64,000 nt of DNA from Sphyrna mokarran (Eukaryota): positions 47,368,001 through 47,432,000 of the forward strand of contig JAGIQG010000014.1 in the NCBI GenBank assembly GCA_024679065.1, read 5' to 3'. This document shows, piece after piece, positions 1,614 through 59,240 of the stretch. Both the position numbers and the translations under genes were made by a program. Below the pieces are notes generated by a model. It was not told the origin of the DNA, did no database searches, and saw only the letters and a list, made by a program, of their open reading frames with translations. Position 1 is the stretch's first letter, and the number at the start of each line of letters is the position of its first letter.

Positions 1614-2162
1614 CAAAAACAAAGTGCTGGAAAATCTCAGTTGGTCTGGCAGCATCTGTGGGGAGAAAACAGAGCCAACGTTTCAACTCTGGATGACCCT
1701 TCATTGGTTCTGTTCTCTCCATATATGCTGTCAGATCACAGAGCCTATAAAAACTCTACAGTGCAGAAGAGGCCATCTGGCCCATCGAGTCTGCACCAAC
1801 CACAATCCCACCCTGGCCTTACCTACGTATCCCTACATATTTATTCGCTAATCCCTCTAACCTACGCATCGCAGGACATTAAGGGACAATTTTAGTATGG
1901 CCAATGAACCTAACCCTCACATCCTTGGACTGTGGGAGGAAACCAGAGCACCCAGAGGAAACCTACTCAGACATGAGGAGAATGTGCAAACTCCACACAG
2001 GCAGTGACCCAAGGCGGGAATTGAACCCAGGTCCCTGGACCTGTGAAGCAGCAGTGCTAACCAATGTGCTACCATGCCGCCCACACGGCATCTGTTGAGA
2101 TTTTCCAGCATTTTCTGCTTTTGTTTCAGATTCCAGCATTCGTAGTATTTTGCTTTTTTCTC
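1614..2162. mobile_element. Penelope-like terminal-repeat (pLTR) palindromic insertion, family A, interrupted by a SINE
   Basis: Left arm 1614-1703 (-) is inverted relative to the right arm 1704-1736 plus 2089-2162 (+). 12-bp TSD cccagcctgtaa at 1602-1613 and 2163-2174. Hammerhead-like UGAAGGGUCAUCCAGAGUUGAAACGUUGGCUCU on the minus strand. Confidence 0.75.
1737..2085 (-). mobile_element. HE1-like V-SINE with CR1/HER1-type tail
   Basis: tRNA-derived head (ggcatggtagcacattggttagcactgctgc), V-domain core (gtgtggagtttgcacattctc...ctggtttcctcccacagtccaa) and tail ...cttctgcactgtagag. Confidence 0.9.
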
Positions 2163-3439
2163 CCCAGCCTGTAAGTTAGTTTGAAGAAATGTTCCATGTT
2201 GTGTATTCACTCCTCAATGATCCTGTTGAGCTTTACGGAAATAGTTCTGTTGTCTGTTAAAGCCAAATTGCAGGGCTAAAGAGACACTTTATTACCTGTA
2301 GCATTATTCACTTACCTTCCAGACAGTTCCAACCAGTTTCTACATTTGCCTGCAAATTAGCATTAAGTGAAACCAGGAAGAAATCAGGATCCTGCCCCAG
2401 CGTCACTTTGAAAAGATTTCACTCCCCATGCACAACTAAACCCGTCTCCTATTGCTGGGTATATTTGGGAATACAGATTATTTTTATCTGAGTTATATAA
2501 AACTTCTATTCTCTCTGCTCTTGTTAGGTCTTCTAAACACTTGGACTGACTTTTCAAATTGGTTTTGTTAGCACAGATGCTGAGTTGTAAATGGAGCAAT
2601 TTGCATTATTGGTTAAAACAATCTGTGTACTCCAGTGGAAGCCGAACGCAAATGATTTGCAAACCACTCCAATTTACAATCCAAGCAGTGAAAATCCATC
2701 ATAATTACAGCAACAGTTGTGTTGGTGCGAGGGACAACTTCCAGACAATACTGATTTAGTGAGCATAATCCATCAAACTCCCATCTATTTCTGGTTACTG
2801 TCAAAGCAATACATTCACATTTTGAAGAAATCTTCATCTTTTGATTCTTCCTTTCTCCTGTCATTCATCTCAACCCGTCTGAGATGTACTTGGTGATTGT
2901 CATGGCACGGTTGCTGTGACCTGGTGTTTTGTCACTGAAATGTGAAATAATTTGTCAGTTTTTTGGCAGAGGAACAGTCAATAAGAAAATCACCGTTCCA
3001 CCAAAAGCAATCAATACATGTTAAGTACATGTTCTGCTTGATTAATTACAACACAGCCACATTACAGCCAATGAAGCACTTTTGAAATGTAGTCACTGGA
3101 CTAAAGTGCCTTGGGACACCCTGAGGTCATGAAAGGCACTAGATAAATCCAAGACTCTTTTTAAAAAAAAACTTGACAGTTACTTTTTGGAGCAGTACTG
3201 GAGCTGTTTATATTTAACTTGTTGCAGGGAATAATGATTTACCATTACTCCATCTTTGTTTTCAGTGATATTTATTAACTGCCTGCATGCTGATTGCTCA
3301 GTGTTTAAAGCTGGACCCATTCTTTCGGCAATTTTTAAGAATTTATGTAATCATGAAGCAAACAACTTCATTGCTTACGGTGCCCAGTCTTGCATCAGTG
3401 ATAAAATGATTCTAACCGAGAAAATAACCGGTTCTAACC

Positions 3440-3690
3440 CTATCCTGAGTACCAAATCAAGACTGAACCCTCAGTGCAGTAATGAGGGAGTGCTACATGT
3501 TAGAAGTGTCATCATTTGAATAGTACTTCAAACTGAGGTCTTCCCTGCCTAGTCAGATGGACACAGAAAATGCCATAATAATTTTTGGAAAACTCTTCCC
3601 CTATAATGCTGACCATTGATCCCCCTCCAATAAACATAATTAAAAATAGAATTTGGCTATTTATCTCCCTATTGTTTGGGGATAACTATT
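3440..3690 (+). mobile_element. Ancient Deu-domain SINE fragment (SacSINE1/AmnSINE1-like)
   Basis: cagtgcagtaatgagggagtgct...aaactgaggtc...tcagatggac resembles the Deu central domain; strongly diverged. Confidence 0.55.
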
Positions 3691-3843
3691 CAAAATTATT
3701 TTCAAATAAACATAATCTGAGGAATTCATAAAACTGTCAATCAAAACAAAGCTGTTAGTCTCCTTGACAGCTGTATCAACAACCCTTGCCAAGCTGACTC
3801 CAGTAATGGGGTTTAGTGCTTAGTCAAATATTCATAATGAGAT

Positions 3844-3965
3844 AAAAGCAAAATATTGTGGCTGCTGGAATCTGAAACAGAAAATGCTGGAAGATCTCAG
3901 CAGGTTTGACAGCAACTGTGAAAAAAGAATAGAGCCAACGTTTCAAGCCTGGATGACCCTTCATC
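3844..3965 (-). mobile_element. Penelope-like pLTR fragment, family A, single arm
   Basis: 9-bp TSD taatgagat at 3835-3843 and 3966-3974. Minus strand starts GAUGAAGGGUCAUCCAGGCUUGAAACGUUGGCUCU (hammerhead-like core, truncated at the 5' end). Confidence 0.75.
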
Positions 3966-4992
3966 TAATGAGATTCCATTTCACAACTCCATCAATGAAA
4001 TATCCAGAGCTGAATATATTAGAGACTTTGAAGTTGTAGAATAGATAGCCAAATATCTAATAACTGCAAATCAATTTGTAAAGAAAGCTGAAGTAACAAA
4101 AGAAGGGGATAATGGAGAACTCAGGACTGAGCAGCTGAGCTGACCTGACTGGAGGTAATCCTTTGGAAATGGGCTTACAAGCAAATAAACTAACCTCACC
4201 TAATATGCTCAAGGCTTTGATGACAGACGGCTATCTGTTTCACTGCTGTAAATGCTCAACTGATTTTGAAATAATATCAAAGGAATCAGCCATTTTTCGG
4301 TTATTCCAAAGATCCAAGAGATGGCTGGGCTGTCAGTCACTGTAAAGATCAAAGCACAGGGTCTAACTGATACATTCAAATCTGACTCTCAATACTGTTA
4401 AATGCATTTTCTGTTGCATAACGTACTCTAAAGCATCTGAACATGTTTACAATGCTGGTCAATTAAATGGTCATTTATCTCTTACGAACAAGTCCTTCTC
4501 AACAAAGATACTTAAACTACAGCATCAAATTATGACATGTGAAGTTGGCAATAACTTTTAAACTTACCTACCACTAGAACAGCCTTCCTCCATGGTTCAT
4601 CATCCATCCGATCTTGTATGGTCCACACAGGCTTCAGGTAATCGACAACTCAGTGAAATGCAAGATTGGGATGGACAGTCCTGATGGCAATTTGTGTGCA
4701 AGTTGGATCATAACAGCCATATTTTCTGTGCTGGTGAAAGTGACAGCTGGTGAGAATTGTTTGGCATCAGGTTAGCAAAACCCGGTTCTATATAGCTGCT
4801 GCACATGGCAAGACCCCTATCACAATTAAATTGAAATCTTTCCTTTGACAGATATGGGTTGTCATCAAATCTGACCTTTGTGATTGGTCTGGAAGCTGGG
4901 AAGCTCACGTTGTGGTTGAATAAAAGAACCATGGCAAAGCCCACTGTTAAAACAGTGGGTTCCTGAATGGCTCTGTTTAGATATAACTCCAC

Positions 4993-5095
4993 CTGTTAAC
5001 TGTGTTTCAGTTTACAGCGATGCTGCATGATCTGCTGGCTATTTCTAGCATTTCTGCGTTCACTTCAGATTTCTGTTCTTTACAATATTTTGCTG
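4993..5095 (+). mobile_element. Older diverged copy of the family A pLTR
   Basis: gttaactgtgtttc...gatgctgcatgatctgctggctatttctagcatttctg...ttcagatttc...aatattttgct is colinear with the copies at 2089-2160 and 59112-59240. Confidence 0.55.
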
Positions 5096-5479
5096 TTGCG
5101 TTAGTACCATTCACGCATTGACCAGCAGTGGGCTCTCAAGGTCTGGCCTATGAATCACAGAAACAGGTTTGGACTGACTGAGAACTCTTCTGTGTCAACC
5201 TTATATTTTGGAGAAGGCACAGGCAAAGTTACCTATGGTCACCAATTGTATATAGGAAACAAATTAGTCAGCAGGAGCACCCACTCGCTTTTGAAGAGCC
5301 ACATTGAATTCCTGTCCATTCAATCAAATACTGGACTTGAAATAAATCTCGCCTACTCAGTTTTTAGTGTTCTCTTTGTGTCTGGGCTATGATGTTAAGC
5401 CCAGATATTTGCCTAGTGGCAGAATCGACTCTGCTGCAGTTCTTATTTTAATACTTCAATTATTTGTAGAACTTTATAG

Positions 5480-6035
5480 AAAATAGAAGCAAGAGTAGGC
5501 AGTTTGGCCTTTCGAATCTGCTCTGCCCATTTGTTTTGATTAGGACTGATTATCAAATCCAATATCCTGATCCTTCCCCCCCCCCCACCAATATAGCTTG
5601 ATCTCTTTAACCCCATAGCTCTATTCATATTTCCTTCTTGAAATATCTCAATGTTTTGACCTCAGCTACTTCACGTGGTAGTGAATTCCACACAATTACT
5701 ATTCTCTGGATGAAGAAATTTCTCATTTCAGTTCTAAAAGGTTTGCCCCTTATCCTGAGACTATGATCCCTAGTTCTCGACTTCCCCATCATTGAGAACA
5801 TACTTTCTGAATCTACCCTATCTAATCATGTTAGAATTTTATAAATTTCCATGAGATCCCTCTCACTCTCCTAAACTCCAACGACTATAATCCTAATCGA
5901 CTTAGTCACTCCTCAAATGATGGATCTACCATCCCAGGAATCAGCCTGGTAAGCTTTCGTTGTGCTTCCTCTGTGCCAAGGACACCCTTCCACAGATAAG
6001 GACACTAAAATTGCATACAATATATGTGCATGGCC
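5480..6035 (-). mobile_element. CR1-clade LINE 3' fragment
   Basis: CR1 ORF2 C-terminal region and 3' tail (tagaagcaagagtaggc...ttggccttc on +). Confidence 0.85.
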
Positions 6036-6425
6036 TTTGCCAAAAAAAAGTGTAAATGGAAGGATTAATGACCTACTGCTTAATTAGCTAGCTAATTAGC
6101 CAGACCCTAAGGCAATAATCGGGCACTTAACTAGATTATAAAGAGTTGAATAGTGAGTTAAACATGTCTGCAATAAAGCTGCTAGGCAACAACACAAAGC
6201 ATTGTTTTTTGGATCCGACTATGAATGCTGGCTCCCATTAGTTCTTCAGCCAGGCACTGGTGACAATGCCTCAATGCAGACCCAAAAGCCGTGGATGGAT
6301 CACTGATTGTCCTAATCCAAGTCCAGGAGACAGAATCCACACAATGTAAACTTATTTAGTTTGTTAGATGGGTTGGACTTACAAGAAGGAAGAACAGTAT
6401 TATTGATTTTTGAAACTTACGAAAT

Positions 6426-6737
6426 ATCATAAAATTCCTACAGTGCAGAAGGCATTTGGCCCATTGAAGTCTGCACTGACAACAATCCCACCCAGGCTCT
6501 ATCCCAATAACTCTATACATTTATCCTGCTAATCCCCCTGACACAAAGGGGCAATTTAGCACAGCCAATCAACCCTATCCTTTATCTTTGGAGCATGGGA
6601 GGAAACCAGAGCACCCAGAAGAATCCTATGCAGACATGGCGAGAGCTTGCAAACCTGACCAAAAAGTGGGATTGAACCTGGGTTCCTGACACTGTGAGAT
6701 GGCAGTGCTAACCACTGTGTCGCTGAGCCATCCTGCC
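6426..6737 (-). mobile_element. HE1-like V-SINE
   Basis: Same head, V-core and tail as 1737-2085. Confidence 0.9.
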
Positions 6738-7384
6738 ATTCATGGGCCATCACAGTAAGAAGTCTGATAATACCAGATTTAAGTCTAACTGATTTATTTG
6801 ATAGTAAACTCTCAGGTTTTCAGGGTTTCTCCCTTTGTCAGATGAATGGAGAGTTCTGGCCTCAGACAGAGCATATAACAGCACACTTTACAGATTACTG
6901 ATTAGAATGCGAGTCTTTACAACTAACCTACTATTCAAGTCTTAAAGATGTGACAATATGAATGGAAAGAGCATTAAGCATAGGTTAAAGAGATGTGTAT
7001 TGTCTCCAGACAGTACAGTGAGTGAGGTTTTGCAAACCCAGGCAGCAGATAGTGCGACATGAGCTCAAGATCCCTGTTGAGACTACTACAACGGTACGAC
7101 AATGGACGAATGAACATTGCTCGACAATCACCAGGCAAGACTGTTCCCTTCCTGTTGGCGAACACTTCAGGGTCACAGATATTTGGCCTGTAACCTTCGG
7201 GTAAGCATGCTCCAAGGTAGCCTTCATGACACACAACAGCGCAGAGTCGCCGAGCAGAGGCTGATAGCCAAGCTCCGCACACATGAAGACGGTCTCAACA
7301 GAGATTTTGGGTTCATGTCACACTACCTGTAATCCCCATGACTTGCCTGGTTTTGCAAAACCTCACTTACTGTACTGTCTGGAG

Positions 7385-7563
7385 TGTAAATTTAAGGTGA
7401 GAGGGGAGAGGTACAAAAATGTCCAGAGGAGCAATTTTTTCACACACAAGTTGGCGAGTGTCTGGAACAAGTTGTCAGAGGTAGTAATAGAGTGGGTACA
7501 ATATTGTCTTTTAAGAAGCATTTAGATAGTTACATGGATAAGATGGATATGGACTAAATGCAG
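7385..7563 (+). mobile_element. CR1 3' fragment nested in the Penelope pLTR
   Basis: KFKVRGERYKNVQRSNFFTHK...WNKL is the CR1 ORF2 end; it is absent from the inverted arm. Confidence 0.85.
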
Positions 7564-7720
7564 ACACATCCCTTTAACCTGTGCTTAATGCTCTTTTCAT
7601 TCATATTGTTGGTATCTTCAAGATTTGAATAACAGGTTAGTTGTAAAGATTCGCATTCTAATCTGTAATCTGTAAACTGTCTGTGCTGTTATATGCTCTG
7701 TCTGAGGCCAGAACTCTCCA

Positions 7721-7757
7721 TTCACCTGACAAAGGGAGAAACCCCGAAAGCTTGTGA
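7721..7757 (+). ncRNA. Degenerate minimal type I hammerhead ribozyme motif
   Basis: UCAC-CUGACAA-A-GGG(AGAAA)CCCC-GAAA-GCUU-GUGA: stem I closes UCAC/GUGA and a palindromic AAGCUU takes the place of stem III. Core G8 is A at 7731, so it is predicted inactive. Confidence 0.6.
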
Positions 7758-9169
7758 GTTTACTATCAAATAAATTGGTTGGACTTAAACCTGGTGTTGT
7801 CAGACTTCTTGCAGTATTTACCCCAGTCCAACACTGGCATCTCCACTTCATGGACCATATCAACTGTTAGTGATCTCAAAGTATTATCCCAACACAGGAG
7901 ATTGCTAAGACGCCTCAAAAAAGGGCGCAAATGCCATCAATTGAATTTAATTACTGTTACCATTGAAAGTGATGTTGCTCACTCAAGCGCAGCTCCTGTA
8001 ACCATACACAGATCCACAGAGAAATGAATAAGTGTTGGTGTTGTTCACTTTATTTCCTCACGATGCCCCGAAACATTTCACATTTAATGTGCTTTTGAAT
8101 TGTTGCCTCTGTTATTACATAAGCAGATACTGCAGGCCAATCTTCACACTGTAAAGTGTCATAAATGATAGAGATAATTTATCAGTTAATCAGCTTTTGC
8201 AATGATGGATAATTTTGGGCCAGTGCAGTAGGAAATTTTCTTGCATTTTGGTTTCGTGGTAATTTCTATAGCCACCTGGGGATTCAGTCTTAACAAACCC
8301 TCAGTAATCCCTCCAGTTTCGGGTTCCAGCATGGGTTATACATTCTGAGATCAGAGTAATGTTTGAACACACAACCTTCAGATACAGAGGTGTGAGAGTG
8401 CTACCAAGCAGATATTTGTAAATTGTAATGCTACATGGTACATGCTCCATTTAGGTTTTGCTTTGTTTCTGGCAAAGGCCTAAAACAGATGTTTGGTGTG
8501 ATTTGAATGGGGAAAGGGCATACAGCTGGTTAAGGCAGAGGCCCCAGATACCTGGGCTACCATCTTTTCTTATCTGGCAGCACCTGTGCTACAGGGGAAA
8601 AAACAAAATGAGCAACATTATTCCTGAGAGTTGATCCTCATTGCCCTTGTATCCCCCTATTAAAGGTAATGTTATATGATAAAATATAATTTGTGGGTCT
8701 GTAGTGCACCCAACCAGGTAGTGGGCTCTTTTGCCTTAGGAAAATGTGGTTGTGAGATTACAACAGAATAAAAAATTTGAAGTAATTGGATGTTGTGTTT
8801 TATTGTTATGCTGCACCATGCCTCAGTCGATCCAAGCTTTATCCCATTGGTAATTTGAGAATGCAGCATTTTACTTTCTTTGTTGATCACAAAAGTGTTA
8901 TTAGCTGAGAGAGACAAAATGACACTTATCTATCTCATTATAAATAAAACAATTTTTTGTTTACTTAACAAGAAGATTTGGCTGAAGTTATACGTACTTT
9001 GCATTCCTTGAGTTCCTACAGTATCAAATAATATTCAAGATTGAATATCCGGTAGTGCATATGGATTCATATTGTAATTTTTCTACTTTTTAGTAAGTAG
9101 ATACAGGCCTTAATTTTTCACCCGTCAGGCATATGCACTCAGCAGGCCGGGAAGTGATGTAAACCATAC

Positions 9170-10320
9170 TCTGGGTGATGGAGGTTACAGAGGTAGAAAG
9201 AATGGGGGCACAGAGAGATTTGAAAATAAGGATGATCATTTTAAAACTGAGATTCCACTTGAGCAGGGGCGAATGTGATCTGGGTGATGGGTGAAGAGGA
9301 CTTGGTGGGAATTTGGACATGAAAAGCAGAGGTCTGAATGAATTCAGGTTTATGAGGGTAGATGGTGGGAGACAGACTATGACTGCAATAGACTAATAAA
9401 GCCTAGAGGTAACACTCGTGTGGATGATGGTTTTAGCAACAGATGATCTGTGGCAGGTGTGATGTCGGACACAGGTAACAGACAATCTTATTGTTTGCGC
9501 AATCATACAATCAAAATCTAATCCAACAGAACACCCAAGTTTATAAACAGTCCAGTGCAGCCTCAGACGCTTGCAGGAAGAAGAATGGAGTTGGTTGCTA
9601 GGGAGCTGATTCTGAAGATCTGTTTTCCAGAGATTTAGTTGCCAGAAATTTCTGTTCACCCAGGACTGGATGTTGAACAAACAGTGTGACAATATAGGGT
9701 CTATGGTGGAAGCAGTTGAGGTAATGGTGAGATAGAACTGGATATTATCAGTGTACATGTGAAAACTGAACTTAGGCTTGATTTTACTGGTGTAAGTTGC
9801 TGAGTTTTGATTGAGTTACAGTCTTATTCTGTGTTTTTAGATGATGCTGCTGAGTTCAGGGGATAACTGAGAAGAAAGGTGAGTTTAGCGTAGATCATTC
9901 AGGGACATCAGAGGGAATGATGTGGGAGCAGAAGGTTTGCAGGTCATTCTTTGGCTGCATTTAGATGGATGAGAATGGGACTAAGTAGGCATAGCCCCTT
10001 TATGTGAGGTGGAGAGGCATCGGAAGACAATGTGTGGTCAGCTGTGTCCAAAGCTGCAGACAGATCTAGAAAGATGAGGAGGAATACATTGTCATTGTCA
10101 CAGTCATATGGGATGTTATTTGTGACTTTGATAAGAGCTATTTCAATACTGTGACAGGCGCAGAAGCCTGATTGGAGAGACAAAAACATGAACTTCAGGA
10201 AAATGGCAATATGGTTTTGGGAGGTGACAACATGTTCAAGGACTTACGGAGAGAAAATGAAATTGAACTGTAGTTCACAAGGGTTGGGTTTTTTTTGAGG
10301 AGAGGGGTGATAATAGATTA
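9170..10320 (-). mobile_element. Old L2-clade LINE, RT fragment
   Basis: LQSGFCACHSIEIALIKVTNNI...LLIFLDLSAALDTADH and YTDNIQFYL match the L2 RT motifs QSGFR..HSTETAL, LDLSAAFDTVDH and YADDTQLY. Confidence 0.85.
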
Positions 10321-11182
10321 CTATGCAGTTCAAATATTAAAATATCAGAGTGGTTAATATCAACCATTGTCAAGTACAAATCAAAAGCTGAACAAATCAT
10401 TTAGAAAACATTGCTAATATATAGTGCACCTGAATATTAAATAATTTCTTGTATTTTCCTGTATAAACACATTCAAAAATTCTTCTGTGGTACAAATGAA
10501 GAATTCTGCATGGTTAAATCAGCAAAACTGGGTTGTGACAGGAATATCCAACACTTCTTGTAATTGTGGACGAATATCAGAGAAAATGGTGTGAATACTC
10601 ATTGGGGACCCCCACTTTCCTTCCAGTACTGATAGTCTGCATAGAAGAAAATAGCAGTTTGTGTCAGTGCTGTGATTTCAAAATGTATTTTACTGATCTT
10701 GCTTTCAAGAAAATTGGTGAGTAAAATGGTAGGAAATTAAGAAAAAACACTGAACTTCTTGTGAAGGAATACATCCTTAATGTCTTAACTGAAAGACCCA
10801 AGATGAATTGATTCTTTTCCTCATAGATATCTAGGGTGGAACTTTACCAAAAATCTCTCATTCATTATGTGTGTGAACTTGATTACATCGCTGGCGAGGA
10901 ATGGCAAGAATCAGAGATTGTAAATCACTGGTGAGATTCGCAATTTCCGGGTTTCACCGGTCTTGAGCCCCTGCCACCATTTCCGCAGATGGAAAGTGTG
11001 AGCTTGGGATCACCCCCACTGTCCCTTCATGTACATAGAAATTCAGTGCTGGTATCATGGGTCTGTAGCCTGTTTTTCTTGTTGTGTTTTAAGAGTTTGG
11101 CAATGAGGTAACCACGTTAGTTGTTTCACCGACAGGACTATGTGAAAATCCATTTGGATTCATCTGGTTCTGTTGGGGAGTG

Positions 11183-11342
11183 GGGCGGTGATTCTCTGGC
11201 CACCCTGTGGCATTTTACTCATGGCGGGAGATCACATGCTATTCACCAGCTCCCACCATTATCAGTGGGATTTCCCATTGACTCTGTGTCCATCAGCGGG
11301 ACGAGAAAATCCCACCGGTCTGAACAGCTGAAGAATTCTGGC
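11183..11342. mobile_element. Short MITE-like element (Harbinger-like termini)
   Basis: Imperfect terminal inverted repeats ggcggtgattctc...gaagaattctggc and internal gtgggatttccc/gaaaatcccac symmetry. Confidence 0.5.
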
Positions 11343-12330
11343 TGAGAGTGAGAGGGAATGATTTATAAACAACAGTTTTAGCTGAGAGCATATCCTGAAA
11401 CTGCAGTATGAATATCAAATCCCAGCTGCAACTTGTCAAAGGACTTATAAAACAAAATGAAATGATCCATGCACAATTCCTCTTTGACAGATCTTTAACA
11501 GATATGAAGTTAGTTGAATTTCATAAATGCATTCTAATTCTTTCAAAAAAGACAGAGGATTGGCAAATCATAAATATCGGATGCTGAATAAAAACCTACC
11601 TCATTATTTTGCCCCTCCCAGCAATATAGTTCTTTTTGAAAGTTCATGGTTTAACATAAATATTAAGGTTACAGAAGATCACTTTCACTGTTTCAGTCCT
11701 TCGAAGCCTGGCAAACTGCAGCATGAATTCAAAATTATTTTGATTTGCATAGAATCGTCCAAATATATGCTTTGCTGAATATTTTTGAATTCAGTATCAA
11801 TAAATTCCATTAAGACTTTCCTGATCGCAAATTAATCACTTCATATGCTGCGTTTCCTTTATGGCTTTACATATTTGAACATGTTGGGGACGGGGTGGTT
11901 GATAGCAAGCTGGAAATTTTTACACTGCACTCTCCCCTGTGTGGGGTACGTCTTGCTGCTTCACCTTTTAGTAAAGCTGGCAAATGGATTTTTGGAATTA
12001 CTGGAAAGTGCAGCGTTCCTGGGGATTGAGATGGCTGCACCACAGTAAAGACCTAACACCAACTAAACAAAAATAAAAGTGGCTATGGTTATATAAGCCT
12101 AGAAAAACCATGGCTGAAATCCTCTCATCCTGCAACAAGCTGGCAGAGGTATGACATGATTGGATTGTCCACATGATCCACAATGCAAAAAAATCTTTTG
12201 TTGAAATTGCAGAATTTACTAATGGGTAGATTTACTTCTTTGAATAGAAACTGGTCAAACATCTGGATCGTTGATCTTAAATTTTTATGCAATTCCGCCA
12301 ACATTAATTAACGTTGGACTCTTGTTCTCT

Positions 12331-12643
12331 TAGAATCCTTACCGTGCAGAAGTAGGAGATTCGGTCCATTGAGTCTGCACTGACAACAATCTCACCTAGG
12401 CCCTTTCCTTGTAACCCCACGTATCTACCCTGCTAATTGCCCTGACACTAAGAGGCAATTTAGCATGGCCAATCAACCTAACCTGCACATCTTTGGACTG
12501 TGGTGGGGGAGTCTAAAGCACCCAGAGAAAACCCACGCAGACACAGGGTGCAATTTCCATGCAGACAGTGACCGGAGGCTAGAATTGAACCGGGTCTGTG
12601 GCACTGAGGCAGCAGTGCTTACCACTGTATCACCATGCCACCC
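12331..12643 (-). mobile_element. HE1-like V-SINE
   Basis: Head, V-core and CR1-type tail as in the other copies. Confidence 0.9.
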
Positions 12644-12719
12644 GCACTGCGCAATGTTGTTAAGGTGACTGTGGTTTAAAAAAAACAATGATTTATTTCT
12701 ATCTTTATTATTTTAGTAG

Positions 12720-13420
12720 ATTATTCATTTTGAATGGGCACTCCTCAGGCTACATTTGATTGATGCAGGAAGTGTCCTTTTGACAGGCCAGAAAACTGGG
12801 TTCCCATGCTTGGCTGTTCAGACTATTCCACTTATGCTTTTGTGTGCTCAGGCAATTAACTGGCTGGCTTTGGGCTTCTGTCTCTTTAAAAGAAAATGGG
12901 AGCCAAGGCCCAAGAGTTACTGGCCAATTGGAAGGCAGGCAGTTTCTCTGTCTCAGCAGCACCACCAGGAGGGGAGGCCATTGCTGGGACTGTGACTGTA
13001 AAAAAAAAATGGATATTGATCTCCCCACAAGGTAAATGAGCTTGGAGGTCATCAAAGCCCTGCCTGTTGGGTCTAGTGAGGGCAGGGTGCAGTTTCTTCC
13101 ATGAAAGCAGCCCTTAGCGATGGCAGGAGGCGGTTCTTCTGTGAGCCACAATGTGCTCCCTGTTCTTGAGGCCACACTCAGCCCAAAAGCAGGCTGCCAG
13201 CCTTTACCACGTTGTGTGCCATGCATGCAACCAATGAAGGTACAATACCAGCAGCAGCAGGAAGGATCCTGAACAGACTTTTTAGTTGGACGGCCGTCCT
13301 CCACTGTCCCCACCGCTGATAAAATTCACAGTGTCAGACAAACACTCCTGCTCTTGCTTTGCCTTTTCATCTTACCTTTGACTCCTAGCCTGTTCCTGGA
13401 AGGCTGGTAAAATTCAACCC
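12720..13420. mobile_element. GC-richer non-autonomous DNA-transposon-like repeat
   Basis: Ends ggtaaaattcaaccc and shares motifs (ctggccaattggaaggc, aatgagcttggaggt) with other repeats in the window; the overlapping ORFs have no recognisable protein motif. Confidence 0.4.
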
Positions 13421-24130: not shown

Positions 24131-24152
24131 CGCAACACGTATTTCAGACATA

Positions 24153-29688: not shown

Positions 29689-29871
29689 TAGAGAAAGAAG
29701 TCTCACAACACCAGGTTAAAGTCCAACAGGTTTATTTGGTAGCAAAAGCCACGAAGGATCAGAGGCCCGAAAGCTGGTGGCTTTTGCTATCAAATAAACC
29801 TGTTGGACTTTAACCTGGTGTTGTGAAACTTCTTACTGTGCTTACTCCAGTCCAAGTCGGCATCTCCACAT
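29689..29871. mobile_element. Penelope-like pLTR palindrome, family B
   Basis: 58-bp arms 29695-29752 and 29777-29834 (2 differences); loop gaaggatcagaggcccgaaagctg is a hammerhead remnant. TSD caaggtg at 29682-29688 and 29872-29878. Same 3' end as 7750-7846. Confidence 0.85.
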
Positions 29872-33137: not shown

Positions 33138-33338
33138 ATGAAGGCAAAAATGCAGATGCTGGAATCTGAAACAAAACCAGAAAATGCTGGAGAAATGCAG
33201 CAGATTTGACAGCATCTGTGGGGAGAGAATAGAGCCAACATGTTGAGTCTGGGTCATCCTTTGTCAGAAACGTTGGCTCTATTCTCTCCCCCCAGATGCT
33301 GTCAGACCTGCTGAATTTCTCCAGCGTTTTCTGTTAAA
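33138..33338. mobile_element. Penelope-like pLTR palindrome, family A
   Basis: Left arm (-) ends at the hammerhead CUGAC (33267); right arm (+) starts at GAAACGUUGGCUCU. 10-bp TSD ctcagatcca at 33128-33137 and 33339-33348. Confidence 0.85.
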
Positions 33339-47177: not shown

Positions 47178-47628
47178 TTCCAGATAATCATTTTCTTGGG
47201 GGAGGAAATAATATGGCAGGATCAGCTTCATACCGGCATAAAACAGCAGAAACATGAGTTCCTACCGGTCATGATGGGTCATCATTCCTGCCAGAGATTG
47301 ATGTACAATTGTTTACATCCTGGTAATGCACTCTGAAACATCATGTGCAGCAGTGGGTGGTTGGAGCATTAACCATGTGTGTCATCTTGTAGCTTCAGAT
47401 GGAAGGCAGATGGAGGTACTGTTGTGCGATGATTTTATGGTTGCGGGGGGGCTTAGTTTTGATGGAGGGAGAGGAATGAAGAGATGGACAGATGGACAAA
47501 AGACCTGAGTGGGGAGATTGGAGATGGCAGAGGGAAAGTTGAGGGGGTCATGGAAGGGTGAGGCGGTTCATGGAATAGCAGGTAATAATTACAAGCTTAA
47601 GGACTACATTGCAAGTAAACCATATGGG
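47178..47628 (+). repeat. 451-bp direct duplication, copy 1
   Basis: Matches 49348-49798 at offset 2170 with no indels; three substitutions seen by eye. Confidence 0.97.
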
Positions 47629-49347: not shown

Positions 49348-49798
49348 TTCCAGATAATCATTTTCTTGGGGGAGGAAATAATATGGCAGGATCAGCTTCA
49401 TACCAGCATAAAACAGCAGAAACATGAGTTCCTACCGGTCATGATGGGTCATCATTCCTGCCAGAGATTGATGTACAATTGTTTACATCCTGGTAATGCA
49501 CTCTGAAACATCATGTGCAGCAGTGGGTGGTTGGAGCATTAACCATGTGTGTCATCTTGTAGCTTCAGATGGAAGGCAGATGGAGGTAGTGTTGTGCGAT
49601 GATTTTATGGTTGCGGGGGGGCTTAGTTTTGATGGAGGGAGAGGAATGAAGAGATGGACAGATGGACAAAAGACCTGAGTGGGGAGATTGGAGATGGCAG
49701 AGGGAAAATTGAGGGGGTCATGGAAGGGTGAGGCGGTTCATGGAATAGCAGGTAATAATTACAAGCTTAAGGACTACATTGCAAGTAAACCATATGGG
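49348..49798 (+). repeat. 451-bp direct duplication, copy 2 (probable donor)
   Basis: The 440-bp insert 49359-49798 is flanked by TAAT on both sides and splits the integrase-proximal reading KKAI|IWKLHRHF. Confidence 0.97.
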
Positions 49799-50159
49799 TA
49801 ATTGCTTTCTTTACAGTGCTACTGTCTCATGATTAACCCCATTTGTATCTCTGACATTGGCTGAATCACAGATATCCTGGAGTGTAATGCTTGTTAGACA
49901 GTTCCAGATTCAAATGAGACTCCTGTACCTGATTTTCTAGGATCCAAGTGAGCTCACCTAGTCAATAATTGTCCTCTACTTATGTGCATCTCCCACAGTT
50001 TTTGTTGCTTCAGAAAAATCTTGCCTTTTGAAAAGTGGCACTCTTAGTTTCAACCACCCTGAACGATAATCTTATTTTACATTGATTTTATACCAATCAA
50101 TATTCCAATATATGCACAAGTGAGTTCACCCAAGGAATTCTGGTCTGAAAAGCTCTCCA

Positions 50160-50177
50160 GAACATCCACTGTTGCCA
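50160..50177 (-). promoter_or_regulatory. Degenerate primer-binding site for initiator tRNA-Met
   Basis: Minus strand tggcaacagtggatgttc versus the complement of the tRNAi-Met 3' end TGGTAGCAGAGGATGGTT; lies upstream of the Copia coding remnants and just after ...accaaca. Confidence 0.55.
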
Positions 50178-51974
50178 CTCTTTTGCTGTTGGTGTAAAAG
50201 CTTCTGATGTGGCAGTTTGAAGCCATGCACAGACAGGGTTGTGTATCCAAAAGTTAACATGCATGATAATAGAAAAACAATGAACAAAACACAGAAGTTC
50301 ACAAACTCTCTGGGAACAAAATTTTCAATTCACCAACTAGACTTGTGGGAAGATTTCAGAAATTACCACCTCATTAAATTTGGCTGAATTTAATATAAGC
50401 TTTCATGAACCTCACCTCAACCGCTGTGTTTCATTTGGTCTCCATTTGCTTGGCTAATAGTGTGTCAACCAGAGGCAGTTTTGTCATTCTAATTTTGACT
50501 TTCCAAGTTTAACTTCTGAATATAAAAATACATTAATCAGATTAATAGTACCTAGTACTTAAAATGAATATAAATATGAGCTGGTGGAGTATTTGCAGAT
50601 GTTAAGGTGTACGGCCTGATTACTGATGTTGGCAACTGAGGTTGAGTAGTGCGAGGCTGTGCAGGCAGTGAGCATTACAGGGTGTGAAATCTAGTTTCAC
50701 TTGAGCAGTTCTGATGAGATAATTTCATTTTTTTCAACGTTGCTGAGATTCCAGCTGAAAGTAATTATACTGTTTCCAGAGCTCTGGCAACACTGCTGGA
50801 TAACAGGCTGATGAGGGCAACCGGACAGCTGTTGAGAATGACTCCTTCTCTCCATCCAGAGAGGATGCTGAGCTCCCCCTGATAGTCTGACTGAAACACA
50901 CAGTGGTGAAAATCATTGGCATATTCCCATATCTTATCATTTTTTCACAGCTCAGTGCTTATAAAGCCATCGTGCAACAGAGCAGTACTGTTTGGGAGGG
51001 AGTAAGATGATTTGTTGAATGTGCATATTCTACTGCACTGTTTGCTCTTCCCAGGTTGAGATGGAGTTATCAGATGGATTAAAGCAAAATCTGAATGATT
51101 TAGTTTTGTGCATGACCTGAAATTGTACCTAGTGACTGCACTGCTGTTCCCTCTCTTCTGATTTACACAGAGAATTGAACATTTCAAGATGTCAAAGTCC
51201 TTGCTGAACACACGTAACAATCATTGAAAGTATTGCTGATGGCCAGATAAAAGAAATATTAAAATTCTAGTACTTGGTTAATAAACAAACTATGTAATAA
51301 GATGATGCTTATGTACAGGTTGGAAGTACTGTTTTAAATGGGTTGCAGCAGAAGCCCATCGACATTGCTCTTGTTTATGTTGTTTCAGAACACAGTACTC
51401 AAATCAAAGAAGAAGCATACAATTTAAATTGGGTATTTCATGCCATCCTAACAGAAAAAAAACAAGGTGCAAAAACGAACACCTAAATTTCAACAAACTA
51501 CGTATTCAAAGGGGATTAACGATTGAAGTGAAAAAGAATCTATTCCTGTTTTCATAAACCAAAGTGTCACACAATTTCCTTCAATTGTAATGTTAGCACT
51601 AGAATTCCACTTAGGCAGTTGACAGTGCATTTCCCTTTGGATCTAATAAAGCCTCAGTGTCTGCTGATAACTAACATCTGCTACTGGAAAGTTGAGAAGC
51701 ACGTCTTCAGATAAGAATCAACTTGATAACATTACGGAGACAACTTGCATCAAAGATTGGGAGGCATCCTTTTAATAGTTTAAAAAAATTGATGAGCAAG
51801 TATTTATCAACAAATAGTCTCTTACTTTTCAAGTTACTGAAAATTACTTAAATGAAGAGGAAAGTTTGCCAACAATGTTTTCATGTTTTTTTGTACAAGA
51901 TGATCAGAGACCCAAAACATTTACAATCAAATTGATTCTTACTTAAATGCAGAATTTCTTGTTGATCTTTCACC

Positions 51975-52290
51975 AGAATTGTTCACAGTATCAACATTTC
52001 TTATTCTGGAAAAAATTTACATTAGCTTGCCATATGTAAAAACTGGCCGAGGATTATAAGTATAAATTTTGTTATGGCCCTGGGATGACTTTGAATTTGA
52101 GTTTATATGGTGGCATGCATATTAGAATTAGACAGTTTGGAAATTCTGGATGGTATAAACTGTTATCATCACCCTGGTCTACAGATTCAATGCTGATATA
52201 TTCTTTGAATTCACCTGACAATTTTTTATTCAAATCTAGTGAATCTTCATTTTTAGCAAAATAATAGCTTTTGACTAATGAGTTGTTTGA
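51975..52290 (-). mobile_element. Helitron-type Pif1 helicase remnant
   Basis: AKNEDSLDLNKKLSGEFKEYISIESVD...YHPEFPNCL...MPPYKLKFKV followed, after a deletion, by SQGHNKIYTYNPRPVFTYGKLM*IFSRIR, matching the RepHel motifs EFLNSL...MPPH.L.LKV and SQGQ...PVFSHGQLYVA.SRV. Confidence 0.75.
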
Positions 52291-52519
52291 AATTGTTGCC
52301 TCTGCCATTTTGCCACACCTAATCAATTCCATTATTTCATTCACCTCCCTGTGACATCCAGTGCTATTCCATGCTTTCCACGCCATCCACATCCAACTTT
52401 TGGAATCCTGAATTTTCCCATCAATCCCATTCCATTCCTCTCAACAATCTCTTCAGCCAGACAACTTTGTGATCTCGTTGCCTTCTATGCTCCACTAATC
52501 CCCACTGTGTCTCCCTCCC

Positions 52520-52547
52520 CACACACACACAGACACACACACAGACA
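52520..52547 (+). repeat. Interrupted (CA)n microsatellite
   Basis: cacacacacacagacacacacacagaca. Confidence 0.8.
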
Positions 52548-52697
52548 TGCAAATCCTCTCAATCCATCTACAAATCACTGGCAACTGCAGACACCACCAG
52601 ATCCAACTGTTAAATCGATCAATCAAAACAGTCCAGACAGACAAAATCTAAACATTATTATTAGAATGGAATAAATGCAGGTAAACTTTGATTATCT

Positions 52698-52982
52698 GCA
52701 GCACAGCGGTTAGCACTGTTGCCTCAGCGTCAGGAATCTGGGTTTGATTCCCGGCTTAGGTCACTGCCTCTGCAGCATCTGCACATTCTCCCTGTGCCTC
52801 TGTGGGTTTCCTCTGGGTACTCCACTTTCCTCCCAGAGTTCAAATATGTGTAGGTTAGGTGCATTGGCCATGGTAAAATTTCACTTGGTGCCTGAGTGTG
52901 GCAATGAGGGGACTTTCACAGTAATGTCATTGCAATGTTAATGTGCACCTATTTGTGAAATTAATAAATAAACTTTAAACTA
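52698..52982 (+). mobile_element. V-SINE lineage B
   Basis: gcagcacagcggttagcactgttgcctca head; tail atttgtgaaattaataaataaacttt. Confidence 0.85.
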
Positions 52983-53639
52983 AGTGTTTCTACTCTTTCC
53001 AGTTAGGATTAAAAAAAAAAGCTGAGAAAAAAGAATACATTTTGTAAGGTGAGATGGTGCACTTTCATGAAAAGGCTTCTAGTCCTTAGGTACACTGTCA
53101 ATAGCAAATAAAAGAAAAATTGGCATTGACCTAGAAGAAGTCTGAAAGCCTCAGGAGTATAAACAGTGAAAGGACATAGAAATGTCAGAACTATTCACAG
53201 TGGGCTTGAATATAGACTTGCATTGAAGGTTGGTCTTAAGTTAAAAGACTATTAAATGGCAACTATTACTATTGCAAAACAAAAACTCTGCACTGTGGGA
53301 TTTAAGATAATTTGAGAAAAGGGCTAAGACATTTTCAAGAATCTCTGATCAGTTAAAACATAAGAATGTGTACAGTCTCAAACAATAAGGAAGATGGAAA
53401 AGTTTTTAATATGGGAAAGATGGTTCAATTAAGGTAAACTTATAAATTGGAAGAGAAAAATTGAGGCTGTAGAGCAGAGTAGCAAATTGGATAAAATCAA
53501 GCAGATTGTGTCAAGACAAGAGAACGTTTAATAACAGAAATAGAAAATTATTTATGATGGCCTCATCCCAGAAAAATTACAAAAAGTTAAAAATAAAGTG
53601 CTATGTCAGAATGCATAAAATATTTGCAACAAGTTGGCC

Positions 53640-53960
53640 AACTAGTGGCCCAAACAGGGAGGCCCAGATTGATGCTTTGGGAAGACAAGTTCAAATCCAT
53701 CGTGACAGCTGGGAAACTTCAAATTAAGTTAAATTAACAAATCTAATATGTGAAACTAGTCTCAGCAATGGTGACCATGACAATTATCATCAGTTGTTTT
53801 AAAAACTCATCTGGTTCACTAATGTCCTTCAGAGAGGGAAATCAGCTGCCCTTACTTTGGTCTTATCTACATCTGATTCCAGATCCACTTCAATGTTGTT
53901 AACTCTTAACTGCTCCCTAAGTGGCCTAGCAAACCATTCAGTTAAAGGGTAATTAGGAAT
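53640..53960 (+). mobile_element. Lineage C SINE
   Basis: catctggttcactaatgtccttcagagagggaaatc core; tail interrupted. Confidence 0.75.
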
Positions 53961-54599
53961 AGAGAAAATATACTGACCCTGTTGCATTCAAGATTGAAAG
54001 AATTGCTAGAATTTTAAGCACCCTATGAGTGAGAAGACAGGTGGGGGCAGGATTTGGGTGAGATGGTAGTGTCATGCCATTGTCTACCAACACCAGGGTA
54101 AATGTCAAACCTTTGGGCCAATGGAGGCCCTTTAATCCCTTTCTTCCACCAATTCCACCAAACGCTGTTTCCAAGGAAGTCCCTTCCTGCTAATGGAAAG
54201 GAATCTGGTGAATGCACCACTTGAATTCTTTGCCCCCTCTCCACCCACCTCAACCCCTGCAACACATGTTCCCTACCCCGCCCCCGCCCCCATCACTGTT
54301 TCACCACCCCTGCACCTCACCACAGACTGTCTGACAGGCCCTAGTGAGACCACCTAATTATTTTTCAGTCTGGCCTCTTTCATGGACTGACGGCAGTACC
54401 AGCAATGGCCACTGTTCCTGGTGGTGCCGCAGGGACTGGAAAGCTACCGATTCTCTGGCTGGCAGCCCCTGGCTTTGGGGCATTCTCCCACGTTGTGACA
54501 GAAGCTACAATCTCAGGCAGCTAACTGCCTGTCAACTGTAAAATCCAGTCCTGGCTTCCTGTGCAGACAGAGGCAAGCTCACCATCTTCAGCTGCTTCA

Positions 54600-55465
54600 T
54601 CAACGATAAAGTCAGAAGTGGGAATGTTCGCAATATGATTGCACTATGTTCGGTATCATTCGCAACTCCTCAGATACGGAAGCAGTGCATGTCCAAATGC
54701 ATCAAGACCTGGGCAATATCCAGACTTGGGCTGACAAGTGGCAAGTCATATTCACGCCACACAAGTGCTCAACAATGACCATCACTAAACATCTCCCCTG
54801 ATGTTCAATTGCATTACCATTACTAATTCCTCTACTAACAACATCCTGGGAGTTACCATTGACTAGAAACTGAACTGAACTAGCCATATAAATAATATAG
54901 TCACAAAAGCAGGTCAGAGGTTGGGAATCCTGCACCTCCTTACTTCCCAAAGCCTGTCCACAAAGTATGGCACAATTCAGGAGTGTGATGGAATAGTCTC
55001 CATTTGCCTGGATGAATGCAGCAATTAACACTCAAGAAGTGCAACACCATCCAGGATAAAACAATAGCTTGAATCTCACCCCTTCCACAAACATTTAATC
55101 CACCACCATGGACAAGCAGTGGGACATCTACAAAATGCATTGCAGGAACCTACCAAGATACCTCCGACAGCACCTTCCAAACACAAAAGCACTGCCCTAT
55201 CTAGAAGGACAAGGGCAGCAGAAAAACGGAACGCCACCACCTGGAAGTTCCTCTCCAAATCACTTGCCATCCTGATTTGGAAATATTCCACTGTTCTTCA
55301 CTGTCACTGAGCCAAAATCCTGGAATTCCCTTGCTACCAGCACTGTTGGATATACTTACACGTAAAGGACTGTAGTGATTCCAGAACACAGTCCACCACA
55401 ATCTTCTGAAAGTCAACTAGTGATAAATACTGCTTTAGCCAGCCTACGTCCCATGAATAAATTTT
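54600..55465 (+). mobile_element. CR1-group LINE 3' part, second family (probable partner of lineage C SINEs)
   Basis: HQDLGNIQTWADKWQVIFTPHKC and downstream RT C-terminal motifs; tail gtcaactag...ataaatactgctttagccagc...gtcccatgaataaa resembles the SINE C tail. Confidence 0.8.
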
Positions 55466-55531
55466 TTAAAGTCCTACTTTTTCAGGCAGCGGACAGGGAC
55501 ACCATCTCAGGATAAAATGTAACCTATTGAC

Positions 55532-55862
55532 AAAGAACAGAGAAGAACAAAGAACAAAACAGATCGGGAAACAGGCCCTTCGGCACAACGAGCCCGTGCT
55601 GCCACACCGATGTTCCCACCTCTACCCGTGAACCCTGTCTATGTTTATAGATCTATGGATTAAAAAACAAATTTGAGACAATTTAGGGAGAATTTGTTTT
55701 GCCAGTTAGCCTAAGAGCACATCTTTGGGATGTGGGAAGAAACCGGAGCATCCGGAGGAAACCCATGCAAGCACGGGGAGAACGCGCAAACTCCCACAGA
55801 CACAGGCCCAAATCCATGTATCTGTACAGCACAGCAATAGTCACTGAGCTGTCGTGTTGCCC
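55532..55862 (-). mobile_element. Divergent V-SINE-like module with CR1 tail, contiguous with the LINE at 56065-57787
   Basis: Minus strand: gggcaacacgacagctcagtg head, gggagtttgcgcgttctccccgtg...cccaaagatgtgc V-core and gccgaagggcctgtttccc...(gttcttt)n tail. Confidence 0.75.
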
Positions 55863-56064
55863 ATCAAATGGTCCAGGTCAAGCGTACACTAACGATGTGA
55901 AGCACGAGGATACTCTCAAAATCCAAGAGCAGCCCTCTCACGACCCATCGCGTGTATGCTCCTTGTTAGACAACAAGGTGGACCAAAGCACCTGTAGGAT
56001 AAAAACAAGTACATCAATATCATCATCTATTTACACACTTCCCAGGGACTCCCAAGGCTCATGA

Positions 56065-57787
56065 TCCCTATTTTAAATCAGTTTTCTATACCCCTCTAAT
56101 TCTGTTCATGTGCCCATCTAAGTATTTCTTAAATAACTCCAGAGTGCCTGCCTCCACTACTTTACTTGGCAGCGCATTCCCATTCTGTGTGAAAAAACTC
56201 ACTCTAGCATCCAAATTATACCTTTCCCCCCCTCACCCTAAGCCCATGACCCCTCGTGCTATTTGAGTCCATCCTAGGAAAAACCTTAACCTATTTACTC
56301 TATCTATACCCCTCATAATCTTGTACACCTCTATTAGATCTCCTCTAAGTCTACATCTTTCTAACGAAAACAGCCCCAATTTGCCTAACCTCTCCTTGTA
56401 ACTCAGACCTTCCATACCAGGCAGCATTCTGGCAAACCTCCTCTGCACTCTCTCCAGAGTCTCCACGTCCTTCCAGTAGTAAGGCAACCAGAACTGGATG
56501 CAGTATTCCAAATGAGGTCTAACCAACGTTTTATACAACTGCAACATTAAAGGCCAGCTCTTGTACTCTATACCCCTTCCTATAAAGGCTAGTATACGAT
56601 ATGCCTTCTTCACAACCTTCTCCACTTGCTCTGCCAGCTTCAGAGACTTGTGCACCTGCACCCCCAGGTCCCTCTGCGTTTCTATACTCTTAATAGGTCT
56701 ATCCTTTATCATATACCTCCCCCCTACATTCTTTCTCCCGAAATGCATCACCTCACATTTATCAGGATTGAATTCCATCTGCCATCTGTCTGCCCAAACT
56801 ACCAGCCTATCTATGTCCTGCTGCATCGCCTGACAATGCTCTCGCTATCCGCAAGTCCAGCCATCTTTGTATCGTCTGCAAACTTGCTGATCACTCCACT
56901 TACTCCCTCTTCCACGTTATTTATATATATTACAAATAGAAGACGTCCCAGTACCGAGAACTCTGCGGCACACCACTAGTGACCGACCTCCAGCTAGAAA
57001 AACACCCTTCCACTGTTACTTTCTGTCTCTTATTAACAAGCCAGTTACTTATCCATCTAGCTATCTGATCTTGTATCCCATGAGCCTTGACCTTTTCAAC
57101 TAACCTCCCATGAGGGACTTTGTCAAATGCCTTACTGAAATCCACATAGACGACATCAACGGCTCGCCCTTCATCGACTGTTTTTGTCACCTCCTCAAAA
57201 AATTCTACCAGATTTGTAAGGCACGACCTCCCCTTAACAAAGCCATGCTGCATATCCCTAATCAGATCGCAACGCTCTAAGTGCCTATACATCCTATCTC
57301 TAAGAATCCCCTCCAACATCTTCCCTATCACTGATGTCAAACTCACCAGCCTATAATTTCTAGGGTTATCCCTACTACCCTTTTTCAACAACGGTACTAC
57401 ATTAGCTATTCTCCATCCTCTGGGACCTCACCTGTGTCCAAAGAAGAGACAAAAATTTGCATCAGAGGTCCAGCAATTTCACCTTGCACCTTCCTAAGCA
57501 GCCTGGGATAAATGCCATCAGGCCCCGGAGATTTATCAGTTTTAATGCTACCTAGAAGCTGTAACACTTCTTCCCTCAGTATGGATATTTCCCTCAACTG
57601 GTCCACAGCTCCCTCAGACAAGAGCTGTCAACAAGCCCCTCTCCTTCGTGAATACCGATGCAAAGTATTCATTCAGGATCTTCCCCGTTCCCTCGGGCTC
57701 TAAGCACAGTTCCCCTCCTCTGTCCCTAAGAGGTCCGATTTTTCCTCTAACCATCCTTTTATTTCTAACATAGGAGTAAAAAGCCTT
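56065..57787 (-). mobile_element. Fairly young 5'-truncated CR1 LINE ORF2 (RT and C-terminus, a few frameshifts)
   Basis: KSPGPDGIYPRLL, NYRLVSLTSVIGK, QHGFVKGRSCLTNL, DFSKAFDKVPH, SGVPQ, KFADDTK, RPHLEYC. Confidence 0.95.
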
Positions 57788-57799
57788 CCTTATGGACTT

Positions 57800-59095
57800 G
57801 ATTTGGTAGATATTACTGAAAGATTAGAAAGTAGCAAATATAATCCTATTGCTCAAGTAAAGAAGGATATATAAAATAGCAATCTATAAGTCAGTTAAGC
57901 TGATATCAGTAGTGGGGAGCTGTTAGAGTTAATCTATCAGGATGTAGTACTGTGGTTGTACACAATCACTATTAGGCCAAGTCAGCAAAGTTTTATGAAA
58001 GGGAAATTGTGTTTGAAAATGTATTAGAATTTTTTTTTGAGGATATAATTAGCACAGAAGACAAGGGAGTATTTGTGAATGTAGCATATTTGGATTTTCA
58101 GAAAATATTTGTTAAGGTGCCACACAAAACATTGGGGCTTGTAGGATTGGGGTAAAATACATGGATTGAGGATTAGTAAACAGACAGAAAAGAGAGAGTA
58201 GGAATAAGTCGGTAATTCTCAAGATGGCAGGGTGTAACTGGTGGAGTGCTGTAAGGATCAGTGTTTAGGGCTCAACTATTTACAATTTATATCAACTTAG
58301 ATGAGAGGGCTAGTGTTTTATACACAAGTTTGCTGGCAATACTGATGTGTTTGGGTAAGAAGATTACAGATGGACTTCTGTGTGGGGAAGTGTGAAACTA
58401 TCCACTTTGACAGGAAGAATGTTTTCAAAACATGAGAAAATGAGAATTAGGAAGGCAAATTGTATTACAAGGAAGTTGGAGTTTATGTAGGGAAGTCTTG
58501 CTACAATTATGTACAGCCTTGGTGAGATTGCATCAGGATTACAGTGTACGGATTTGGCTCCCTTATCAAGGGAAGGATATAGTTGCCCTGGATGGGGTGC
58601 AATGAAAATTGACTGAAATTCCTGAGATGAGAGAGCTGCCTGTGAATAAAAGATTGAGTAATGTGGGCTGATACATTAGACTGATTCTAAACTTCACTGA
58701 ATAAGTGTATATTCAGTGAAATTTAGAAGACTGAGAGATGGTTGCATTGAAATGTGAAAACATCTGACAGAACTTGTTGGGCTAAAGCAATTACTTTTCT
58801 CAATTTGTGAGAAGTTGAGAGACTTTTTTTTCTGACTGGAGACCATAATCTCTCCAGTTAAGAAAATGAGGACATTTAGGACTGAGATGAAGAGAAATAT
58901 CTACGCGCAACGAGTGGATTTTCAGTCGATGGGTATTCTCAGGACTAAGATTTATAGATTTTTGGATATTAACGAAATTGAGGGAGAAGGAAAGAAATAG
59001 ACCAGGAAAATGAATTTGATGTAGCTGTTCAGCTTTGATCTTTTGAATGGTGGATAGACTGAAAGGATCATATAGCCTACTCTTGATCTGATTTC
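57800..59095 (+). mobile_element. Old CR1 LINE (RT to 3' tail), heavily deleted
   Basis: tatttggattttcagaaaatatttgttaaggtgccacac (YLDFQK.F.KVPH) and tail tagcctactcttg. Confidence 0.8.
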
Positions 59096-59111
59096 AGTTG
59101 TTCTGATGGAG

Positions 59112-59240
59112 TGAAGAATCATCCAGACTCGAAATATTGGCTCTTTTCTCCCTCCACATATGCTGTCTTGCCTGCTGCGTTTTTCCAGTATTTTCTGCTT
59201 TTGTTTCAGATGCCAGCATCTGCAGCGATTTGCATTTATT
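59112..59240 (+). mobile_element. Penelope-like pLTR fragment, family A, single arm
   Basis: tgaagaatcatccagactcgaaatattggctct...ttttgtttcagatgccagcatctgcagcgatttgc; starts inside the hammerhead core. Confidence 0.75.

Follow-up and report, generated by a model that had tools for sequence, protein, structure and literature searches.

Terminal-repeat stubs of two Penelope-like families in Sphyrna mokarran have 5' ends that pile up at the first base of a hammerhead motif

Described systems and the elements of this window

According to the accessible text of PMC8557442, PMC3846280 and PMC2377424 (all papers are cited here from their accessible text), Penelope-like elements (PLEs) of the endonuclease-bearing (EN+) Neptune type combine a reverse transcriptase (RT) and, at the C terminus, a GIY-YIG endonuclease with a CX4CxxC linker, TATA-like and initiator-like motifs in the pseudo-long terminal repeat (pLTR), an inverted 5' copy, a tail on one side only and target-site duplications of 7–12 bp, and the elements reported here resemble them in all of these respects. 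The first of these papers defines the Neptune clade by a CX2-5CxxC linker ahead of GIY-YIG, the second notes the TATA and initiator motifs in pLTRs, and the third maps the pLTR promoter of Drosophila Penelope. Truncation of published Neptune elements is described as variable, whereas the 5' ends of the short copies (stubs) that we describe from a stretch of 64,000 nucleotides of Sphyrna mokarran DNA (assembly GCA_024679065.1, contig JAGIQG010000014.1, forward-strand positions 47,368,001 to 47,432,000; hereafter the window) and from a sample of the same genome peak at one base. This base is the first of helix I of a hammerhead ribozyme motif, and the pile-up probably arises because reverse transcription runs off a capped RNA made from the pLTR promoter.

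Closely related observations come from the Anolis Poseidon element PAc (PMC11167929), for which two internal RT starts flank the tail in vitro, about 110–150 nt past the hammerhead, both DNA strands undergo cutting and extension, products are shortened when the RNA is truncated at its 5' end, and ribozyme cleavage is not needed. PAc belongs to another clade, and its accessible description neither mentions a genomic 5' pile-up at the RNA start nor explains head-to-head joints. Architecture, hammerhead, internal RT starts, close opposite-strand pairs and pLTR-derived tandem retrozymes are already in print, while the formation of inverted repeats and tails and the role of the hammerhead are treated as open questions for PLEs in this literature. 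We found no published account of a 5'-end pile-up at helix I in the mostly open literature covered, and supplementary figures accompanying PMC11167929 may be relevant here.

On sequence grounds, the window inserts are pLTR stubs of two Neptune-type families, A (copies at 1614, 3844, 33138 and 59100) and B (6751 and 29689). In longer copies of family B an RT lies upstream of the pLTR (Pfam RVT_1, E 3e-6, 27.4 bits, just under the 29.6 cut-off), with the motif YIDD and the GIY-YIG pattern VYLI..YIGET..EHF..E..GLN; longer A copies have the endonuclease motifs VYCI..LYI.ETK..EH..EE..GLN. A CX4CxxC linker precedes GIY-YIG in both (CHSNLCKTC in B, CNHRRCNTC in A), and the Neptune assignment rests on the linker definition, bearing in mind that Nematis has the linker too. 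The order RT, C-terminal GIY-YIG endonuclease, pLTR, together with an optional 30–40-nt tail, an inverted 5' copy and a target-site duplication, is that of EN+ Penelope elements, and the pLTR origin suggested by the initial annotation is supported by the motifs upstream in longer copies.

By the definition given in PMC4209133 the motif qualifies as a minimal type I hammerhead, and self-cleavage is predicted. It shares with other metazoan PLE hammerheads the CUGANGA box, the extra base before helix II, the G10.1-C11.1 pair and the palindromic 15.2-16.2 segment. Majority sequences of both families keep the strict CUGANGA..GAAA..UH core with palindromic stem III (AACGUU in A, AAGCUU in B), as had been predicted. 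For the window copies themselves, family membership held and an intact motif did not, the strict core being present in 0 of 10 arm segments checked; elsewhere it was found in 41 of 80 parsed B arms (of 117) and 6 of 15 parsed A arms (of 33). Helix II pairs swap between B subfamilies to an extent reached by 0 of 2000 shuffles, and the B helix I pairing was reached by 1 of 2000, kinship inflating the statistic in both cases; the same shuffle test gave no helix-pair swapping signal in family A. An Rfam scan of the window returned no hammerhead match, only weak hairpin matches, and folding z-scores of the monomer were weak (-0.7 to -1.9). Counting from the first base of helix I as +1, the ATG of the CUGAUGA core in family A opens, from +8 onward, a frame that runs through the tail, as in the Anolis element, and the family A tail contains a pyrimidine tract and CAG near +103 to +108, close to the short 3' end described below.

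Distribution of 5' ends

In this numbering the cut site follows +35 in A and +34 in B, and family A positions taken from profile, junction and pair statistics run one lower. We scanned an unselected sample from 13 large contigs, consisting of 140 stretches, each 10 kb long and placed at round coordinates (1.4 Mb; the assembly searched comprises 2.77 Gb). The variable helix II can give short-seed or single-subfamily alignments a false end, and the profiles were therefore rebuilt from long arms of all subfamilies. There were 87 A and 143 B matches, of which 83 and 133 were kept after dropping those that ended before +80 or were cut by a locus edge; the sample represents 69 A and 91 B insertions, roughly extrapolating to ~140,000 and ~180,000 genome-wide. 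The abundant class of 120–200 bp inserts that had been anticipated is supported, and includes many short palindromic inserts that are easily misfiled as miniature inverted-repeat transposable elements or microRNA hairpins. A second set (29 A, 58 B) was chosen solely on sequence 3' of the motif. An automatic duplication search on solo copies was clean in 16 of 85 rows, too weak for placing 5' ends. At L195, L207, L212 and L329, family A arms directly adjoin the tail or short end of pieces of family B, which suggests nested targeting or inter-family template jumps within one event. A B subfamily of near-identical copies without a TATA box (L138, L142, L122, L288, L305, L309) is probably the youngest.

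In the unselected sample, 31 of 83 A arms and 23 of 133 B arms have 5' ends within 5 nt of +1, and no sequence upstream of -10 is present in 60 of 69 A and 42 of 91 B insertions. Expressed as stops per 1000 nt at risk, the rate is 106 (A) and 27.6 (B) at -5 to +5, 13.5 and 8.3 at +33 to +40, and 1.4–2.5 for B upstream of -70 (about 0.2% per base). Against a uniform distribution over -70 to +70 the peak is highly significant (31/74 A, p 1e-15; 23/87 B, p 1.5e-7), so the expectation that breakpoints are not spread uniformly along the pLTR was upheld genome-wide, and the 3'-anchored set peaks at +1 as well (9/29 A, 9/58 B). The proposal that cleavage sets the ends fared differently, since there is no significant excess at the cut site (+33 to +39: 7/74 A, p 0.07; 7/87 B, p 0.14, on the same uniform expectation). 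The peak sits at the front (5') edge of the ribozyme, away from the cut site, and this profile provides in vivo-scale evidence against cleavage-defined templates. PMC4209133, which in its accessible text leaves copy ends unmapped where here they are mapped, proposes cleavage and circularisation, and the end profile does not reflect that.

Promoter signals and a proposed run-off mechanism

Both families have an initiator-like A at +1, with a TATA-like box 30 nt upstream of it. Among long arms, TATAWR starts 30 nt before +1 in 14 of the 33 from family A and at -30/-29 in 53 of the 102 from family B, and the initiator-like YYA and YAG(C/T)T are present in 84 of 102 B and 21 of 33 A arms, respectively. 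From these signals, +1 is likely to be the start of the element's own capped RNA, transcribed from the pLTR promoter.

A further indication comes from the base before +1. In full-length L1 insertions (PMC9341517) cDNA (complementary DNA) reaching the capped 5' end can gain a C opposite the cap, an untemplated 5' G being the described sign of cap copying, and we propose likewise here. Across the whole genome, 340 of 1531 exact B matches have an off-template base (not C) before +1, and 105 of 334 exact A matches have a purine there. By hand tally among the matches listed (first 100), it was G 52, A 22 and T 26 in B and G 75 and A 25 in A; a control three bases inside helix I, among the matches listed (first 100 of 138), gave G 55 and A 45 (Fisher p 0.029). 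Loci not picked for G had G 13 times and A 6 times. Among inspected loci, all of them G loci, the G was left unexplained in 9 of 20 (A) and 12 of 20 (B). A non-templated G before +1, as RNA-cap copying would give, is suggestive only.

We propose that transcription from the pLTR promoter yields a capped RNA that begins with the hammerhead, which makes up its first 40 nt, with +1 as the putative transcription start. The enzyme would prime at two internal sites, as in the Anolis element, presumably on the 5' copy of the pLTR end, and produce run-off cDNA of 100–135 nt ending at the cap. Both target strands would be primed in this organism, one or both target ends would receive such cDNA, and two cDNA 3' ends would be trimmed or padded and then joined head to head, the hairpin arising anew with each insertion. 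Most stubs, without an upstream TATA box, may be dead on arrival. The ribozyme would mark stub ends through its position in the first 40 nt of the RNA and not through cutting or blocking, and the sharp prediction is a capped start at the first base of helix I together with paired run-off cDNAs. Retroviral strong-stop DNA is a short cDNA that reaches the capped 5' end of its RNA. In contrast to both L1 and retroviral strong-stop, it is apparently the run-off product itself that becomes integrated here, in many cases as a head-to-head pair. A wider generalisation can be offered only tentatively: PLEs may mostly integrate strong-stop DNA, an enzyme dimer priming both target strands at two internal sites on hammerhead-first capped RNAs, in which case more than 100,000 stubs would record the start at single-base resolution and the ribozyme would be a decapping or template-choice switch and not the maker of template ends.

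Several observations weigh against run-off to a single capped start. Copies are ~10–20% diverged, so that single ends are uncertain by a few bases, and ends are also spread over +6 to +40 (26 arms in A, p 4e-6, and 23 in B, p 0.07). Family B has a shoulder at -40 to -6 (7–14 stops per 1000 nt) which a single start site does not explain, and for which alternative start sites or promoter-proximal ends are candidates. There is no TATA box in 38 of 102 long B arms (some B subfamilies), and +1/+2 of family A resembles a splice acceptor too, with branch point, pyrimidine tract and AG. Adjoining element sequence, a duplication or a point change accounted for the G before +1 at 11 of the 20 inspected A loci and 8 of the 20 inspected B loci, and the control position is itself G-rich (55:45 against about 40:60 expected). 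Lastly, most junctions of head-to-head pairs contain filler and not microhomology (18/22 A, 38/60 B).

Head-to-head pairs and competing explanations

Head-to-head insertions make up 15 of 69 A and 45 of 91 B insertions in the sample. The 3' ends of arms are bimodal, at +95–105 and +130–135, in classes ~35 nt apart that match the two internal starts of PAc (PMC11167929); in pairs, the inverted arm mostly ends at +92 to +105 (short) and the direct arm at +130 to +135 (tailed). Close opposite-strand pairs and single motifs had been noted in PMC4209133 as probable truncated PLEs. An alternative to run-off, which we regard as unlikely, is that the hammerhead fold stalls RT or releases cDNA on a longer RNA and the cDNA then snaps back. 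It would account for the enrichment of family A ends across +6 to +40, and for the arms of most pairs being closer to each other than the family average (18/23 A, 43/48 B), as expected from a single template; PMC3846280 also proposes self-priming from palindromic inverted junctions. However, the peak is found at the structure's far 5' edge, which tells against the earlier suggestion of the fold as the main roadblock, and there are few stops at +26 to +32 (0/60 and 1/102 arms at risk). Moreover, inverted arms end at the fixed short site, zero-loop palindromes should not be able to form as single-strand hairpins, and in some pairs (4/19 A, 8/45 B) the arms resemble each other less, by 10 points or more, than they resemble their best outside matches. 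At L265 (near 1300–1580) both arms of a head-to-head pair are tailed and they belong to different B subfamilies; this mixed pair and the zero-loop palindromic junctions fit two cDNAs better than snap-back.

It is also conceivable, and in our view very unlikely, that +1 is an RNA processing boundary such as a 3' splice site. In Drosophila Penelope the intron end coincides with helix I's 5' end (PMC4209133), and family A contains a CTGAT that resembles a branch point, a pyrimidine tract and, at +1/+2, YAG. Against this, the stubs retain the AG, share no common upstream exon sequence, and in family B peak at +1 without an AG there.

That the hairpin inserts are self-propagating, retrozyme-like units copied whole, as the initial annotation proposed, is highly improbable given the diversity of their junctions. 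Junction-resolved pairs (22 A, 60 B) were taken from the random and 3'-anchored sets among 100 candidates listed, leaving out weak arms, duplicates, window copies and one earlier search set. All 60 B junctions and 21 of 22 A junctions are distinct (L194 and L212 were merged by eye). Two A loci have in common a perfect junction centred on the self-complementary AGCT at +1 to +4, and this class recurs at L003, L194, L212, L321 and L322 as well as at 7 of 20 inspected loci (three of them degenerate). Identical junctions, expected at many loci under self-propagation, were seen for this one A class, which run-off to +1 predicts, and for no other. The class probably recurs because the 4-nt palindrome lies at +1, and is what annealing of two cDNAs that stop at +1 would produce. 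The recurrent loci differ in their outer ends and helix II variants, and the exact 26-nt junction occurs at 2 loci compared to 334 for a non-junction pattern of equal length. Inverted arms best-match other inverted arms by 28 to 18 in B, as copying of whole units would predict, but the count is opposite in A (5 to 18). Non-LTR (non-long terminal repeat) retrozymes (bioRxiv 10.64898/2026.07.22.740005) are likewise short non-coding hammerhead sequences derived from pLTRs in vertebrates; they are head-to-tail tandem units, whereas matches in the 1.4 Mb are dispersed, solo or head-to-head, with no head-to-tail arrays noted among them, and are bounded by the predicted RNA start and RT starts (+1 and the tail sites), not by cleavage sites.

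To ribozyme cleavage as the maker of the template 5' end we give almost no credence: the inverted arm of the 29689 copy does start exactly at +35 and a few arms end at +33 to +40, but there is no significant cut-site excess, of the junction-resolved ends only 1 among 44 in A and 2 among 120 in B lie at +35 to +37, and in PMC11167929 cleavage could be dispensed with and no reads were found to end at the site, so that cleavage as the main cause of the ends is already contradicted.

Inserts and other repeats in the window

All six Penelope-derived inserts of the two families indicated by the initial annotation are present (Table 1), and the five target-site duplications it listed were recovered with lengths of 12, 9, 7, 7 and 10 bp; no duplication of at least 6 bp was found at the flanks of the sixth insert, the 59100–59240 stub. 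The five short copies all break between +2 and +35, inside or at the edge of the hammerhead, as had been reported. The last stub is genuine and its start was misplaced, lying near 59100 and not at 59112; the stub carries a 5-nt insertion. In the long copy at 6751–7846 the inversion point falls in endonuclease coding sequence near 7085, outside the hammerhead. A Pfam scan of two endonuclease fragments from 7085–7332 gave no match, and the endonuclease was recognised by motif.

Table 1. Penelope-derived features of the window (positions are those of the window)
Feature	Position	Strand	Details
Left target-site duplication, 1614 copy	1602..1613		12 bp; right copy 2163-2174
Family A inverted arm, 1614 copy	1614..1704	-	short 3' end; 5' end +8
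Family A direct tailed arm, 1614 copy	1702..2162	+	5' end ~+32; 3-nt overlap with inverted arm
Family A solo stub	3844..3965	-	5' end +7; tailed 3' end
Duplication of 3844-3965 stub	3835-3843 and 3966-3974		9 bp
Family B inverted copy	6751..7083	-	short 3' end back to end of open reading frame
Duplication of 6751-7846 copy	6739-6745 and 7847-7853		7 bp exact; 12 bp with one mismatch
C-terminal piece of family B GIY-YIG endonuclease	7085..7332	+	frameshifted; ends GLNRDFGFMSHYL
TATA-like box, family B pLTR	7690..7695	+	30 nt upstream of +1; promoter role predicted
Family B minimal type I hammerhead	7720..7759	+	one core change in 6751-7846 copy
+1, 6751-7846 copy	7720		initiator-like A; first base of helix I
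Family B pLTR 3' part	7760..7846	+	optional ~35-nt tail at about 7811-7846
Family B hairpin insert	29689..29871		7-bp duplication
Inverted arm of 29689 copy	29692-29752		5' end +35; short 3' end
Direct tailed arm of 29689 copy	29751-29871		5' end +10; 2-nt overlap with inverted arm
Family A hairpin insert	33138..33338		10-bp duplication
Tailed arm of 33138 copy	33138-33268	-	5' end +4
Short arm of 33138 copy	33267-33334	+	5' end +28
Family A solo stub	59100..59240	+	5' end about +2; 5-nt insertion in core

The insert at 1614–2162 reaches 549 bp only through a ~340-bp dispersed repeat (about 1747–2088) within its direct arm, which we take to be SINE-like (short interspersed element). A second dispersed repeat, presumably LINE-like (long interspersed element), sits within the long Penelope copy at about 7385–7563, and both intruding repeats have further copies in the window. 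The window also contains a 451-bp direct repeat with 99.3% identity (47178–47628 and 49348–49798, ~2.2 kb apart), which is LTR-like or a recent duplication.

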